NCBI GenBank assembly: GCA_050872785.1
Contig: JBNMHO010000003.1
Span: 12,554-76,553, forward strand
DNA: 64,000 nucleotides
Direction: 5' to 3'
Origin: Clostridia bacterium
GTDB lineage: Bacteria; Bacillota; Clostridia; Christensenellales; UBA1242
Shown here: in pieces, positions 50,546 through 58,661 of the stretch
Layout of the letters: each line of letters starts with the position of its first letter
Numbering within the stretch: position 1 is the stretch's first letter
Program-made: the position numbers and the translations under genes
The notes under the pieces: model-generated
Database searches by the model: none
Seen by the model: the letters and a program-made list of their open reading frames with translations, nothing else
Told to the model about the DNA's origin: nothing

Positions 50546-52096
50546 TTGAAAAAGAAGATTTTTTCGTTGATACTCACAGCAGTTCTTATTGTGACAGCCT
50601 CTGTCGCAATGGTCTTTTATGCTTTGGCTGCAACCCAAATCAACCTAAAATCTACCATTGAAGTTGGTTATACTGCAGCACCAAATGTCGTCTGCGAAGC
50701 CAGTGCAACCTATCAACTGGAAAAAGATGCCTCGGCAACTGCCTTTACTTCTGGTGGACAAAGTTTCGCTTACATAGACTCTCAAACAACAAAAACACTC
50801 ACCGCCAGCAACTCTGCCTTGGTGCTTAATGACATGACCAGTTCATATGTCATATTCACATTCACATTTAAGAACAAAAACTTAATGTCAACTTTCAATC
50901 TTAACATCAAACTTACAGACAATTCACTCTGCTCAAATATGACAAGAAAATATTATTTTGGCTCACTTTCTTCATCAAACCTTGCCAATCTCGCCAGCCA
51001 AATAAAATCTAACGGCGTTGACTACTCCGCACTTTCAAGCCAAACCTTAACTCTGGGCTATCAAGAAACTGGCAAAGTCTATATGCTTGTGGAAATCATT
51101 TCTGGCCTTAAGGGAAGTTACACCGCAAACACCGCAAATGGCTTCAAATTTACGCTTACAACCACCACGGGGGGGGGGGTAGCCTTTCTTAGCAGTGACT
51201 GGAAAGACCGCCTTAACATAGGTATAGAAAATATAGAAGACAACAATGTAACAACCCTTATTTTTACAAAAGACTCAGCCCAAACAAGCGGACTTTCAAA
51301 TAGCAAGTCAGTTGGCACAAACAGTGCAACAAGCACTTCTGCCTACACAACAGCCCCAGGAATTTCTGATGTTACAGCCTACTGGAATAGCAACAAGTCA
51401 AAAATTGTTATTTATTCACCAAACACCATTTATGCCCCACAGAGCTGCTATCAATTGTTTGATCTTTGTGAAAAAATGACAACCATAGATTTATCCAACT
51501 TTAATACTAGCATTGTGACCGATATGTTTTGTATGTTTTCTGGCTGTAAATCTCTAATAAACCTAGATTTAAGCAATTTTAACACCAGCAATGTGACGAA
51601 TATGTGTGAAATGTTCTTGCGTTGTTCTGGACTAACCAGTCTAAACTTAAGCAATATTGATACAAGCAAAGTGACGGATATGGAGGGTATGTTCTATAAT
51701 TGTTCTGGGTTAACCAGTCTAAACCTAAGCAATATTGATACAAGCAAAGTGACGGATATGGGGATTATGTTCAGCGGTTGTTCTGGGCTAACTAGTCTAA
51801 ACCTTGGCAACTTTAACATGCAGGCCTGCACTAATTTTTATTACATGTTTGATGATTGCTCCGCCCTTAATTCAATAACTCTGCCATACAACTTGCAAAG
51901 CGGAAAGACAATAGACCTGCCAAGTCTAGATAGTGGATATTATTACACTGCCGATACTTCTGACATTTCCGTAGGTGCTTATTCTTTTACAAAAATTGGA
52001 ACGGAAACTAATCTCGCAAATAATGTTATAGCTTGTTCAACAGCAAGCAAAAAAGTAGAGGTGTGGAAAAACTCTGGTACTCCTGATATAACCTAA
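50546..52096 (+). CDS. Surface protein: ~210-aa N-domain + in-frame poly-G hinge + BspA/DUF285-like LRR repeats (phase ON)
   Basis: Signal helix; TTTGGGV encoded by G11; 26-aa repeats LxxLNLSNxxTSxVTxMxxMFxxC. Confidence 0.85.
   Translation: MKKKIFSLILTAVLIVTASVAMVFYALAATQINLKSTIEVGYTAAPNVVCEASATYQLEKDASATAFTSGGQSFAYIDSQTTKTLTASNSALVLNDMTSSYVIFTFTFKNKNLMSTFNLNIKLTDNSLCSNMTRKYYFGSLSSSNLANLASQIKSNGVDYSALSSQTLTLGYQETGKVYMLVEIISGLKGSYTANTANGFKFTLTTTTGGGVAFLSSDWKDRLNIGIENIEDNNVTTLIFTKDSAQTSGLSNSKSVGTNSATSTSAYTTAPGISDVTAYWNSNKSKIVIYSPNTIYAPQSCYQLFDLCEKMTTIDLSNFNTSIVTDMFCMFSGCKSLINLDLSNFNTSNVTNMCEMFLRCSGLTSLNLSNIDTSKVTDMEGMFYNCSGLTSLNLSNIDTSKVTDMGIMFSGCSGLTSLNLGNFNMQACTNFYYMFDDCSALNSITLPYNLQSGKTIDLPSLDSGYYYTADTSDISVGAYSFTKIGTETNLANNVIACSTASKKVEVWKNSGTPDIT
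51169..51179 (+). repeat. Poly-G (G11) tract in coding sequence, in frame
   Basis: accaccac-GGGGGGGGGGG-tagcc. Confidence 0.95.
51467..51880 (+). repeat. 78-bp tandem coding repeats (about 5 LRR units)
   Basis: tgttctgg units at 51623, 51701, 51779 exactly 78 bp apart with near-identical framework. Confidence 0.85.
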
Positions 52097-55051: not shown

Positions 55052-56347
55052 ATGAGTTTTTTTAGTTGGGTTTTGTATATCGCCATAGCCATTCTTGTGC
55101 TTATGGTTATGATAACTGTGCATGAGTTTGGGCATTTCACCGCAGGGAAATTATTGAAGTTTAAGATTAACGAATTTTCCATTGGCTTTGGCAAAGCATT
55201 GTTTCAAAAAAACATGAAAGACGGAACAAAGTTTGCAATAAGACTTGTTCCTCTTGGCGGATATTGTGCTTTTGACGGCGAAGACGAAGAAGGCGAAAAA
55301 GAAGGCTCTTTCAACTCTCAACCAGTTTGGAAGCGACTTATCGTGCTTTTCATGGGACCTTTTTTCAACTTTTTGTCCGCACTTCTTGTGTCAGTCATTT
55401 TTCTTATGTGCTTTGGCTATGCAGACAATGTTGTTGTTGCAAAAGTCAATCTTCCAGCATCAGCCACTGCTGAAACATGGCTTATGGAAGGGGATAGAAT
55501 AACTGCAGTAAATGGCACTACAACCGATTTTGTTTATGACAATTATTTTCACACACTCATCACCCAATATGACTATGACGAAGACTTTACAATAACAGTG
55601 GAACGAAATGGGGAATACAAAGACATTGTTGTTTCAAAGAAGATGTGGGACAATGTTCCAAGTCAAGTTGTAAACAATTTTACTTATGCGAAAAAATATT
55701 CTCTTGATGGCGAAAACTACAACTATACAATCATTTACAACTCAGAACTTGCAGGCAAGTATCAACTTGCAAAATTGGACGGGAATGGTGTGCCAGTTGC
55801 ATACTTTAATGCCGAGCAAACTCCAAACGGCTATCTTGTAAAAGAACCCGAACTTGGAAAAACATTCCTTATCGAATCAACTTCAGAATCGGCAGAAAAT
55901 TACAGTGATTTGACACTAAAATCTGCCATTATTGGAATTAACACTGCAAACTACAAATATGGCTTCTTTGAGGCCCTTGGTGGGTCGTTTGTGTTCTGCT
56001 TTAAATGGGCGTGGAAAATTCTTATAATCTTGTGGCAACTTATAACTTGTCAACTTGCCATCTCAAACATAGGTGGAACAGTTACAACAGTTGTTACAAT
56101 GGCTCAGGTTGCCCACACAAATATGGCAAATCTTCTGCTTTTATTCCCACTAATTTCAATAAACCTTGCCGTGTTCAATCTTCTTCCTTTCCCAGCACTT
56201 GACGGGGCAAGAATGGTGTTTGTGGGCATAGAAGGTGTGCGTGGCAAGCCAATAAATAGAAAAATTGAAGCAAATATTCACTTCTTTGGACTTGTTTTCT
56301 TGTTAGCCTTCGTTTTGATAGTTGACATATTACACTTTGTGCTTTAA
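55052..56347 (+). CDS. rseP: RIP metalloprotease RseP/RasP
   Basis: HEFGH, PLGGYC, PDZ-like GDRITAVNG, NLLPFPALDG. Confidence 0.93.
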   Translation: MSFFSWVLYIAIAILVLMVMITVHEFGHFTAGKLLKFKINEFSIGFGKALFQKNMKDGTKFAIRLVPLGGYCAFDGEDEEGEKEGSFNSQPVWKRLIVLFMGPFFNFLSALLVSVIFLMCFGYADNVVVAKVNLPASATAETWLMEGDRITAVNGTTTDFVYDNYFHTLITQYDYDEDFTITVERNGEYKDIVVSKKMWDNVPSQVVNNFTYAKKYSLDGENYNYTIIYNSELAGKYQLAKLDGNGVPVAYFNAEQTPNGYLVKEPELGKTFLIESTSESAENYSDLTLKSAIIGINTANYKYGFFEALGGSFVFCFKWAWKILIILWQLITCQLAISNIGGTVTTVVTMAQVAHTNMANLLLLFPLISINLAVFNLLPFPALDGARMVFVGIEGVRGKPINRKIEANIHFFGLVFLLAFVLIVDILHFVL

Positions 56348-56356
56348 AATATATAC

Positions 56357-57934
56357 ATGGCAACAAAACAAGAATTTTTAAATTATATAAACAAAAAAAC
56401 TTGCGACAAATTCAGTTTTATCAGACTGAAGCAAGTTTTTTTTGATGCTACAAAGAATTGTTGTAATATCCAGTTTATTTATCCCGCCGAAAAGACCTTG
56501 ACCGATGACGATAAATTGGAAATTGAACGAGTAGTGAGGGAATACATCTGTGCCCCTTGCAGTGTGAATATTAGAATAAATAAAAGTTTTATTGAAGCGC
56601 CACTTATCTTGGAGCAAACACAAAAATTTCTTGCAAAAAACAATCCCATTGTGTCGCAAGCCTTGACAAAAGAGGATATTGTAATAAATCTAACTTTTCC
56701 AGTTGAGATAACCTTAAAAATGGAGCAATCGTTGGTTGACTATTTTGAAAAAAACAGTGTTGCTAGAAATCTTGAGAACGACCTAAAACAAAACTTTTGC
56801 ACAGAGTTTGACATAAAAACTGAGTGTGTGGAAAAGCAGATAAATAGCGACCAAATGCTTGAAGATAGACTGCGAGAAATTAGACTTAAAAGCGACTTAG
56901 ACAGCCTTGTTGCTCAAAGTCACGACAAATATTTTGTGCAAAATAAAAGAGTTATTTTAGGCAAGGAAATTACGCTTTCTCCACGTTACATAAAGAGCGT
57001 AAATAGGGAATACGACACTTGTGTTTTGGGCGGAATGATTTGTTTCCTTACAGAAAAATCTTTTAAAAGCAAACGAACAAAAGTCAATGAAAATGGCGAA
57101 GAGGAGCCAATTCAGAAGCCATATTTTTCCTTGCAACTTAAAGACGAAACGGGAAAGATAAATTGTGTCGTATTTCCAAGCAAAGAAGGTTATCACAAAA
57201 TGCACTTACTATCAAACGGCAATACAGTCGTTGTTGAAGGGAAAATTACAAAATTTAATGGCGGGTTCGATATGACGGTTAAAAAAATCTCTCTTTGCGA
57301 CTTGCCAGACAAAAATGAAGTTGTAACGGTGGAAAATCAAGACGAAATTACAGATTATCGCTTTGTCAGACCACAAAAATACACAAGTGAACGACAAACA
57401 AGCCTATTTTTTGAAAGAAAGTTGTCTGAACAGGTGGAAAGAGGGAAATTTGTTGTTTATGACCTTGAAACAACGGGCGTTGACCCCGCACGTGATGAAA
57501 TTATTGAAATTGGTGCTTTGAAAATTGAAAATGGCGAGTTTAGCGAGTTTTGGACAACGCTTGTCAGACCTTCAAGACCAATTCCACCAGATGCAACAAA
57601 AGTTAACAGAATTACAAACGAAATGGTCGCTCATTGCTTTAATATCAGTCAACTTATCTCCGATTTTTATCTTTTCTGCAAAGATTGCACCATTGTTGGA
57701 TACAACAGCATTGCTTTTGACAACTTATTCTTGCAAAAAGCGGGCAATAATAGCAAAATCACTTTTGACAACCCCGTTTTGGACGTTTTCCTTATGGCAA
57801 AGCAAAAATTGAGGGGACTTAAGAACTATAAACTTGGGACTGTTGCAAAATTCCTTGACATTAACCTTGTTGACGCTCACAGAGCCTTAAATGACGTTAT
57901 TGCCACTGCCGAAGTGTTCTTAAAATTGTATTGA
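56357..57934 (+). CDS. PolC-derived protein: N-terminal domain + OB fold + DEDDh 3'-5' exonuclease; no PHP/polymerase
   Basis: LKDETGKINCVVF OB fold; YDLETTG, GYN..FD, HRALND exonuclease motifs; stop right after exonuclease; sits at the polC position (rseP...rimP). Confidence 0.8.
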   Translation: MATKQEFLNYINKKTCDKFSFIRLKQVFFDATKNCCNIQFIYPAEKTLTDDDKLEIERVVREYICAPCSVNIRINKSFIEAPLILEQTQKFLAKNNPIVSQALTKEDIVINLTFPVEITLKMEQSLVDYFEKNSVARNLENDLKQNFCTEFDIKTECVEKQINSDQMLEDRLREIRLKSDLDSLVAQSHDKYFVQNKRVILGKEITLSPRYIKSVNREYDTCVLGGMICFLTEKSFKSKRTKVNENGEEEPIQKPYFSLQLKDETGKINCVVFPSKEGYHKMHLLSNGNTVVVEGKITKFNGGFDMTVKKISLCDLPDKNEVVTVENQDEITDYRFVRPQKYTSERQTSLFFERKLSEQVERGKFVVYDLETTGVDPARDEIIEIGALKIENGEFSEFWTTLVRPSRPIPPDATKVNRITNEMVAHCFNISQLISDFYLFCKDCTIVGYNSIAFDNLFLQKAGNNSKITFDNPVLDVFLMAKQKLRGLKNYKLGTVAKFLDINLVDAHRALNDVIATAEVFLKLY

Positions 57935-58144
57935 TTTCTTTGGAATGGAAAAGTTGCAATTATGTGGCATATTTAAAAGAGTTTTAAGACAATAAAATGA
58001 CATTTTTGGGCAAAAAATGAGTTTTCGCAGCAAAAAGGCGAAAAATAGAGATAAATTTTTGAAAAAATGTGAAAAAAAGTGACACTGGGGCTTGATATTT
58101 GTAAATTGTTGTGTTAAAATAATTATGCTTTAAAATGTGTAGTT

Positions 58145-58169
58145 TTAAGAGTGGCTTGACCGCTCTTAA
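58145..58169 (+). promoter_or_regulatory. rimP-leader hairpin
   Basis: ttaagagtgg-cttga-ccgctcttaa, resembling the conserved AAGAGTGG stem upstream of Firmicute rimP. Confidence 0.6.
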
Positions 58170-58196
58170 TTGCTATTTATAGAATGGAGGGAAAAG

Positions 58197-58661
58197 TTGA
58201 AGCAAACTATTGCATCTATTGTTGAAGAAAACTTGAAAGATGTTGTCGCAAAATGCGGGTGTGAACTTTATGAAGTTGAATATGCAAAAAAGCAAAATGG
58301 CATGAATTTAACTTTGTTCATTGTGAAAAGGTCGGGCATCGTGAATATTGACGATTGCGAGGCCGTCCACAGAGCGGTTGACCCAATTTTGGACGAGATA
58401 AACCCAACGGGCGACACGCCATACACGCTTAATGTTTCATCACTTGGACTGGATAGACCAATAAAGTCGGACAAAGATTTTGAGTGGAACATTGGAAAAG
58501 ACGTTGATGTCAAGTTGTTTGAAAAAATGCAAAACAAAAAAGAGTTTGAAGGCAAAATTTTAAGTTTTGACGGAAAGATAGTCGCTTTTGATGTGGCAGG
58601 GGAAAAAATTGAAGTTCCAAAGACAATGATTGCTGGGTGCAAACTTCATTTGGACTTCTAA
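58197..58661 (+). CDS. rimP: Ribosome maturation factor RimP
   Basis: IDDCE, YTLNVSSLGLDRP; TTG start after GGAGG. Confidence 0.95.
   Translation: MKQTIASIVEENLKDVVAKCGCELYEVEYAKKQNGMNLTLFIVKRSGIVNIDDCEAVHRAVDPILDEINPTGDTPYTLNVSSLGLDRPIKSDKDFEWNIGKDVDVKLFEKMQNKKEFEGKILSFDGKIVAFDVAGEKIEVPKTMIAGCKLHLDF

Follow-up and report, generated by a model that had tools for sequence, protein, structure and literature searches.

What becomes of a replicative polymerase gene that stays at its locus but no longer encodes a polymerase? The question is raised by a 525-residue open reading frame (ORF) in a stretch of 64,000 nucleotides from a Clostridia bacterium of the order Christensenellales (GenBank assembly GCA_050872785.1, contig JBNMHO010000003.1, positions 12,554 to 76,553 of the forward strand), which we call the window. 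The ORF starts with ATG and occupies a position where Firmicutes usually carry polC, and an earlier note, made from the letters of the window alone, had taken it for a PolC without its polymerase. We find that the protein descends from PolC, that the polymerase half of PolC is missing from the genome, and that this short form has been kept under strong purifying selection throughout a large clade of gut Clostridia with small genomes, where it probably acts as a second proofreader for the remaining polymerase, DnaE1.

Descent from PolC

An alignment of 51 short-form sequences was compared by hhalign with an alignment of 26 full-length PolCs. The two were collinear over 501 columns, with residues 7–526 falling on PolC residues 12–583 at a probability of 100 and an E-value of 3.5e-70. 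As a single sequence, the 525-residue protein had its best NCBIfam match in the PolC family NF001688, at positions 411–584 of 1445, while the whole-protein PolC scores stayed below cut-off (139.8 bits vs. 873 for NF001688 and 119.2 vs. 1043 for TIGR01405). An AlphaFold model of the protein, with a predicted local distance difference test score (pLDDT) of 84.3 and a predicted template modeling score (pTM) of 0.44, found PolC 9qpc_A as its top Foldseek match (394 columns, E 1.7e-17). The best relatives longer than 919 residues were nearly all PolCs, a few of them covering 95–96% of the query.

The kinship was then followed domain by domain. Residues 1–190, the N-terminal domain (NTD), matched the PolC alignment on their own with a probability of 86.1 and an E-value of 5e-6 over 136 columns (20–160 on 22–164), a relationship that was visible only by profile comparison; the pLDDT of this domain was mostly 85–95. 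The OB-fold part alone gave a probability of 97.2 (E 3.6e-11) on PolC 222–327, and Pfam placed an OB tRNA_anti-codon domain (PF01336) at residues 254–312 (E 7e-11). When a second model, comprising NTD and OB fold, was searched with VIA-align, all matches were taken up by OB folds (model residues 198–315), the nearest being 3f2b_A (Z 14.4, root-mean-square deviation (rmsd) 1.5, 93 residues aligned) and 9qpc_A (Z 13.6), both of them OB folds of PolC. A profile search of the PDB returned no significant match outside the exonuclease except YhaM in the OB region (E 2.6e-6).

The C-terminal part is a DEDDh 3'–5' exonuclease domain. Pfam RNase_T (PF00929) covered residues 366–521 (E 2.6e-28), and the TIGR00573 "dnaq" subfamily-domain cut-off was passed with 85.6 bits vs. 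71.5. The motifs are D369-L-E371, F454-D455 and H508-RALN-D513, and the five catalytic residues (D369, E371, D455, H508 and D513) were invariant in 51 of 51 aligned short forms. Against the PDB, the family profile matched best the PolC exonuclease of T. maritima, 2p1j (E 5e-58), followed by PolC 9qpc (E 4e-42), and Foldseek superimposed the model on DnaQ and epsilon structures with an rmsd of 1.9–2.5.

We conclude that the protein is a polC descendant, because of the collinear profile match, the matches of NTD and OB fold to their own regions of PolC, the PolC-nearest exonuclease, the structural top matches and the position upstream of rimP and nusA.

To define what was lost, 18 full-length PolCs of the order were aligned by MAFFT with 23 short forms representing 16 families. 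The 47-residue linker between OB fold and exonuclease stands at the place of the first half of the PolC PHP domain (PHP-N), is about 45–50 residues shorter than in PolC and lacks all of its PHP-N motifs (HxH, D, DH and E); no Pfam PHP match was found in the protein. The linker alone gave no hhalign match to PolC, and that it is a remnant of PHP-N would follow only from its position and from a V-x-P-E-x-Y stretch aligned to AFPE-AY of PolC. One residue of the linker, P339, was nearly invariant among the 51 sequences. At its other end, the protein stops at the last exonuclease helix, where PolC enters the second half of its PHP domain, and short forms in general terminate 0–10 residues past this helix. 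Pfam detected neither a PF07733 polymerase core nor a helix-hairpin-helix (HhH) in the protein, which cannot polymerize.

The earlier note had already described a PolC derivative with an NTD, an OB fold, a linker without the PHP HxH motif and an intact DEDDh exonuclease (DLE, FD and HRALND), and in all of this it was borne out. Its single clean deletion has to be replaced by an old, clade-wide state with two losses, one of about 45–50 residues of PHP-N and one of everything past the exonuclease.

The replicative polymerase of the genome

The window's genome (1.11 Mb in 37 contigs, 98.5% complete, a metagenome-type assembly) gave a single PF07733 hit, in a 1205-residue protein whose gene adjoins whiA on contig C1. 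This protein scored as DnaE, with 1208.7 bits for NF005298 and about 1100 for NF004226 and TIGR00594, and weakly as PolC; judged by these scores, the only DNA polymerase III (Pol III) alpha subunit of the genome is of the DnaE1 type. Its PHP domain was compared with that of Taq DnaE (2hpi) at the nine metal-ligand positions listed in PMC12926913, and all nine (H, H, D, H, E, H, C, D and H) were identical. An internal QFSLF is present in this DnaE1, and the genome also has dnaN (368 residues, contig C8) and dnaX.

No full-length polC was found in the assembly. The post-exonuclease parts of six of 18 fetched PolCs matched the DnaE gene only, PHP domains were confined to DnaE and a 297-residue frame, and the genome held no RNase_T-family gene besides the remnant. 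A split PolC with its polymerase half elsewhere was ruled out by the PF07733, PHP and PolC C-terminal searches of this genome. The check for polC and dnaE thus agrees with the DnaE-only genome that had been supposed in the earlier note, there being no polC and one DnaE; the full-length polC that the note had considered might lie elsewhere was found neither in this genome nor in the relatives searched.

The dnaX gene of this genome (contig C1; locus L185, 1468–2568, minus strand) is a gamma-like ORF of 366 residues. A separate ORF of 189 residues (L185, 875–1444, minus strand) lies 23 nucleotides past it and is followed by a ybaB-like gene. Frames of 377–410 residues were also seen for dnaX in G055, G112, G073, G100 and G099, most genomes of the order having 500–700 residues. 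The short dnaX could mean that tau is split, that a frameshift site is present or that the assembly is in error.

Distribution, origin and selection

Each of the 24 further genomes sampled from the same genus had an equivalent frame, with 47–98% identity; in three it was truncated at a contig end, and in the others it was complete at 527–541 residues. Across 301 sampled genomes of the order, all of at least 90% completeness, the short form occurred in 16 families comprising 140 genomes (f1, f8, f11, f13, f16, f17, f19, f20, f22, f23, f28, f30, f33, f34, f37 and f39). Some copies lie on contigs hundreds of kb long, and one is in G256, a genome assembled as a single contig. The survey of related metagenome-assembled genomes that the earlier note had proposed therefore returns the same short architecture clade-wide, and the assembly error that it had considered fails as an explanation, given the 24 same-genus genomes and the 16 families.

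Hits to PF07733 separated the two kinds of genome. Among the 140 genomes of the short-form families there was one hit in 127, two in 11 and none in two, whereas 146 of 146 genomes from 21 PolC families had two or more, mostly three, because PolC itself gives two. Eight of the 11 two-hit genomes (all except G099, G144 and G224) and two more from family f25 were re-examined. Their second hits were split hits, frames of 170–408 residues, or DnaE-like proteins of 1078 (G143) and 802 residues (G165), and none of these 10 genomes showed a second Pol III alpha of PolC length. Short frames of 170–368 residues that match PF07733 weakly and only in part (E 1e-4 to 4e-14) were noted in short-form genomes at G324:C42, G256:C1:1098678, G264:C18, G278:C18, G323:C10 and G309:C14.

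Two observations concern the exonuclease of PolCs in the same order. The full-length PolC of locus L050 (genome G027, family f4) has degenerate exonuclease motifs, with no DxE, FD or HxxxxD in the alignment, and possibly has a dead proofreader; genomes of genus g4 matched the remnant query at E 1e-7 to 1e-21 only. In family f21, seven of 16 genomes (G044, G126, G145, G163, G211, G257 and G302) had three PF07733 hits, from which we take PolC to be present, and no match to the exonuclease-bearing query. These PolCs may be the exonuclease-less PolCs of Timinskas et al. 2014.

A careful IQ-TREE analysis of 502 columns and 50 rows placed all 23 short forms in one clade, with support of 100/100, on a long stem. 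In a tree of DnaN, one branch parted 15 DnaE-only from 13 PolC species, with a Shimodaira–Hasegawa approximate likelihood-ratio test (SH-aLRT) value of 100. By these trees the short form has a single origin. Searched against 1.84 billion representatives, a profile of NTD and OB fold alone retrieved 351 clusters (50% identity) with E <= 1e-30, and the best 150 of the 351 were all 294–577 residues long.

The ratio of nonsynonymous to synonymous substitution rates (dN/dS), calculated by the Nei–Gojobori method, was 0.041 between the window's genome and G008 and 0.040 between G019 and G006, and was low in NTD, OB fold and exonuclease alike. For close pairs it was 0.05–0.09 in the NTD and 0.01–0.05 in the exonuclease; over longer distances, dN was 0.03–0.04 in the exonuclease vs. 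0.13–0.19 in NTD and OB fold. NTD, OB fold, linker and exonuclease are evidently all kept under strong purifying selection.

A candidate clamp-binding motif in the linker

The linker contains the pentapeptide QTSLF (Q347–F351), for which the earlier note had pointed out a resemblance to beta-clamp-binding motifs. The common consensus of such motifs is QL[S/D]LF, more generally QxxLF, and the motif of PolC is C-terminal, as described in PMC12309361. In the 51-sequence alignment Q347 and F351 were conserved at >=90%. In the 45 residues preceding Exo motif I, 131 of 139 short forms had a Qxx[LMIF]F pattern and none of 122 full-length PolCs did, the background in other 45-residue windows of short forms being 19 of 1396. 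The last 12 residues gave the reverse picture, with the pattern in 115 of 122 full-length PolCs and in 0 of 143 short forms. The family-wide conservation strengthens the lead given by the resemblance; the clamp motif has in effect been relocated from the C-terminus of PolC to the linker, and this speaks for continued selection on clamp binding once the C-terminus had gone. The pLDDT was <50 at residues 346–352, and the stretch is probably disordered, as would be expected of a linear motif. A model of the complex between DnaN (28-row alignment) and the full 525-residue protein (51 rows), computed without controls, had a best score of 0.17, the mark being 0.32.

Further reduction in family f25

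Family f25 lies within the DnaE-only clade of the DnaN tree. One PF07733 hit was present in 13 of its 15 genomes, and matches to the remnant query were weak or absent. In three of five genomes examined, the gene upstream of rimP encodes a homologue whose NTD and OB fold can be aligned but which has lost Exo motifs I–III and shows the canonical motif in altered form. The other two (G048 and G213) have unrelated genes at this position. The pattern points to a separate role for the NTD–OB part.

The locus and its neighbors

The coordinates of the gene, its domains and its neighbors are collected in Table 1. The remnant gene begins 9 nucleotides past the end of the rseP-like gene, and downstream of it the order is rimP, nusA, a ylxR-like gene, infB and rbfA. 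A setting with rseP on one side and rimP, nusA and infB on the other is the usual neighborhood of polC in Firmicutes. Among relatives, the next gene after the short form encoded a RimP homologue in 18 of 22 loci; for full-length polC, a RimP homologue lay downstream in 10 of 18. The placement between rseP and rimP, at the native polC position, had been read correctly in the earlier note; so had the shortness of the spacer before rimP, but its length, given as about 260 bp, is 235 nucleotides to the first listed in-frame rimP start (58170). No PolC debris was found in this spacer when 18 full-length PolCs were run by tblastn against positions 57800–58300 of the window, all matches with E < 0.1 being confined to the coding end of the remnant gene. 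Promoter- or terminator-like sites around the gene were not in excess over shuffled controls.

Table 1. Positions of the PolC-derived gene, its parts and its neighbors in the window, and homologues from family f25.
Feature	Position	Strand	Evidence
Whole gene, NTD-OB-linker-Exo, 525 residues + stop	56357..57934	+	ORF list; hhalign; Foldseek
N-terminal domain, residues 1-190, homologue of the PolC-specific NTD	56357..56926	+	hhalign, AF2 pLDDT, dN/dS
OB-fold domain, residues about 191-315	56927..57301	+	Pfam PF01336, hhalign, VIA-align
Linker, residues 316-362, at the place of the first PHP half of PolC; no metal-binding motifs	57302..57442	+	MAFFT alignment with 18 PolCs
QTSLF, Q347-F351, candidate beta-clamp-binding pentapeptide	57395..57409	+	conservation; motif counts
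DEDDh 3'-5' exonuclease domain, residues 363-525	57443..57931	+	Pfam, PDB profile, conservation, dN/dS
rseP-like gene (context, upstream)	55052..56347	+	name read from the ORF translation
Intergenic region before rimP	57935..58169	.	tblastn
rimP (context, downstream)	58170..58661	+	ORF list
f25 homologues	L100 (G080) 485 aa, L101 (G147) 487 aa, L102 (G107) 500 aa	-	directly upstream of rimP

Elsewhere in the window, positions 50546–52096 (plus strand) hold an ORF of 516 residues with a signal-like N-terminus and tandem repeats of about 22 residues (DLSNFNTSxVTxMxxMFxxCSxLTSLNLSN), which looks like a surface leucine-rich-repeat protein.

Proposed function and alternatives

We consider it fairly probable that, in the ancestor of the clade, the PolC remnant became a clamp-tethered second proofreader that acts in trans for DnaE1. 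On this reading, PolC lost most of the first half of its PHP domain in the common ancestor of the clade, together with all that follows the exonuclease: the rest of PHP, the polymerase core and the clamp motif at the C-terminus. DnaE1 was left as the sole replicative polymerase, and a new Qxx[LMIF]F arose in the linker in place of the lost clamp motif. The remnant might then bind one protomer of the beta clamp through its linker motif, with DnaE1 on the other, while the OB fold, and perhaps the NTD as well, would keep it at the primer–template or the clamp loader. From there its exonuclease could take off 3' mismatches left by DnaE1 in trans, beside DnaE1's own PHP site. There are two published precedents: the PolC exonuclease of B. 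subtilis is reported to correct DnaE errors in trans (PMC5627055), and mycobacterial DnaQ is described as binding the clamp through a clamp-binding motif and proofreading together with the DnaE1 PHP domain, with no stable alpha complex (PMC11348249). Since the PHP metal site of DnaE1 is complete, the remnant would be a second proofreader and not the only one. The epsilon-like proofreader of a DnaE-only replisome that the earlier note had proposed is therefore retained as regards the DnaE-only replisome, and given up as regards a sole, epsilon-like role.

Several points weigh against this proposal. With all nine PHP ligands, DnaE1 may proofread for itself, which would make a second proofreader non-essential, and the remnant lacks an epsilon-like C-terminal tail, so any contact with DnaE1 would be new. 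The NTD is without an established role even in PolC. The losses in f25 imply that the exonuclease is dispensable in some lineages, and NTD and OB fold may carry the main function. As to distribution and origin, frame lengths come from 150 of 355 match rows, some genomes being assigned to the short form by family membership and E-value, and the placement of the short clade as sister of the order's own PolCs is unsettled in the careful tree (63/83 for the long clade, 84/77 for nine outgroup PolCs); a quick tree had joined the short clade with these PolCs at an SH-aLRT of 93, which the careful tree did not bear out.

Other readings give NTD and OB fold a docking or structural part. Tentatively, the remnant could be an obligatory, PolC-derived subunit of a hybrid replisome, in which the NTD, reported to be kin of tau domain V, and the OB fold dock to the clamp loader, DnaE1 or the template, the relocated motif binds the clamp, the exonuclease proofreads for DnaE1, and f25 keeps the docking module only. 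Somewhat more doubtful is a mainly structural subunit that works through NTD and OB fold, at the clamp loader, DnaE1 or single-stranded template DNA, as these domains may also do inside PolC, with the exonuclease as an accessory that is decaying in places. The f25 homologues of 485–500 residues, which keep NTD and OB fold without Exo motifs I–III, would agree with a structural subunit, as would dN/dS values in NTD and OB fold as low as those of the exonuclease in the closest pairs, the 351 clusters retrieved by the NTD–OB profile alone (the best 150 of them 294–577 residues long) and the contact between PolC NTD and clamp loader that has been proposed and is cited by Timinskas et al. 2014 (PMC3919608). 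However, the catalytic residues are invariant in all 51 short forms, the window's own lineage included, and over longer distances the exonuclease is the most conserved part, unlike a decaying accessory. The structural and the proofreading roles can both be true.

The exonuclease might also work away from DnaE1, as a clamp-associated enzyme of repair or end processing, in mismatch-repair excision or in trimming 3' ends at stalled forks. QxxLF-type clamp motifs are common in repair proteins (PMC12309361), the only DEDDh exonuclease of a reduced genome may have taken over several tasks, and a contact with DnaE1 is without evidence; but the ancestor was a replicative proofreader, the PolC exonuclease of B. 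subtilis already works in trans on what DnaE has synthesized (PMC5627055), and the PolC-specific NTD and OB fold that were kept fit a replisome better, so that we regard this as improbable. Re-use as an RNA exonuclease seems very improbable: although some source annotations read "3'-5' exoribonuclease", DEDDh enzymes include RNases (with PDB matches to RNase T at E about 1e-6) and the rimP, nusA and infB genes nearby serve ribosome maturation and transcription, this neighborhood was inherited from polC, the nearest exonucleases (PolC, DinG and DnaQ) are DNA enzymes with RNase T far weaker, and an RNase would have no evident use for a conserved clamp-type motif. It is hardly credible that we are dealing with an artefact, with a pseudogene or with a minor paralogue of a full-length polC present elsewhere. 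A 37-contig metagenome-type assembly could conceivably miss a gene, but the architecture recurs in 24 of 24 same-genus genomes and 16 families, the one-contig G256 among them, dN/dS is about 0.04, and neither a full-length polC in this genome or the relatives searched nor a PolC-length second alpha in the 10 re-examined genomes was found.

Novelty and significance

A DnaE-only replisome is not by itself new for the phylum, since Timinskas et al. 2014 had already noted DnaE1-only Clostridia, and also exonuclease-less PolCs (PMC3919608); the earlier note had called the former unusual. A PolC-derived stand-alone exonuclease subunit appears to be new, as no description of a polymerase-less PolC remnant was found in the full-text literature searched, subscription-only papers and most supplements being outside its scope. 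A survey from 2026 covers complete genomes only and lists Christensenella minuta, and a term search of its supplement gave no "truncated" or "fragment" entry (PMC12926913). Surveys restricted to complete genomes in this way, or dropping fragments without a polymerase active site (PMC3919608), would miss the short forms, which are currently labeled as hypothetical, exoribonuclease or epsilon-family proteins.

The division of labor between PolC and DnaE1 in Clostridia is termed experimentally uncharacterized in PMC3919608 and PMC12926913. The clade amounts to a natural experiment on it, in which DnaE1 replicates alone and the non-polymerase half of PolC has long been kept (16 families; at least 351 clusters at 50% identity). 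This suggests that the exonuclease, NTD and OB fold of PolC are valuable apart from synthesis by PolC, and the compact 525-residue protein offers a handle on the roles of the NTD and OB fold. If the hybrid-replisome reading is true, one of two replicative polymerases has turned into an epsilon-like subunit of the other, the alpha–epsilon arrangement has been re-invented independently, and nature has here set the long-unexplained function of the NTD–OB module apart from polymerase activity. Antibiotics aimed at PolC would presumably find no target in these gut bacteria.

Comparison with known systems

The remnant is collinear with about the first 583 residues of PolC (NTD, OB fold and DEDDh exonuclease), and both genes lie upstream of rimP and nusA. 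It differs from PolC in having no PHP metal motifs, second PHP half, PF07733 core or HhH, and in having a Qxx[LMIF]F in its linker, the C-terminal QLSLF of PolC being gone. With the E. coli-type epsilon subunit (DnaQ) it shares the arrangement of a separate DEDDh polypeptide beside a DnaE1-type alpha, with a clamp-type motif adjoining the catalytic domain. Its origin, from PolC, is independent, however, and its motif stands before the catalytic domain, that of epsilon after it; the alpha-binding C-terminal tail of epsilon is absent, and NTD and OB fold add about 315 residues. Moreover, the PHP site of the partner DnaE1 is intact, unlike that of E. coli alpha (PMC12926913).

In B. subtilis, an exonuclease of the same lineage acts on DnaE errors in trans, but it does so within a full, active PolC recruited by DnaE, whereas the polymerase part of the remnant is gone (PMC5627055). 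A parallel in arrangement is the non-canonical mycobacterial DnaQ described as an "additional proofreader" (PMC11348249), likewise a stand-alone DEDDh protein with a clamp motif beside a PHP-complete DnaE1. Its clamp binding and its synergy with PHP, with no stable alpha complex reported, are what the proposal above takes as its model. That protein has other ancestry and no PolC NTD or OB fold, and its function has been established by experiment, where that of the remnant is inferred. The Clostridia family would be a second, independent case in which a proofreader tethered to the clamp stands alone next to a DnaE1 with an active PHP site.

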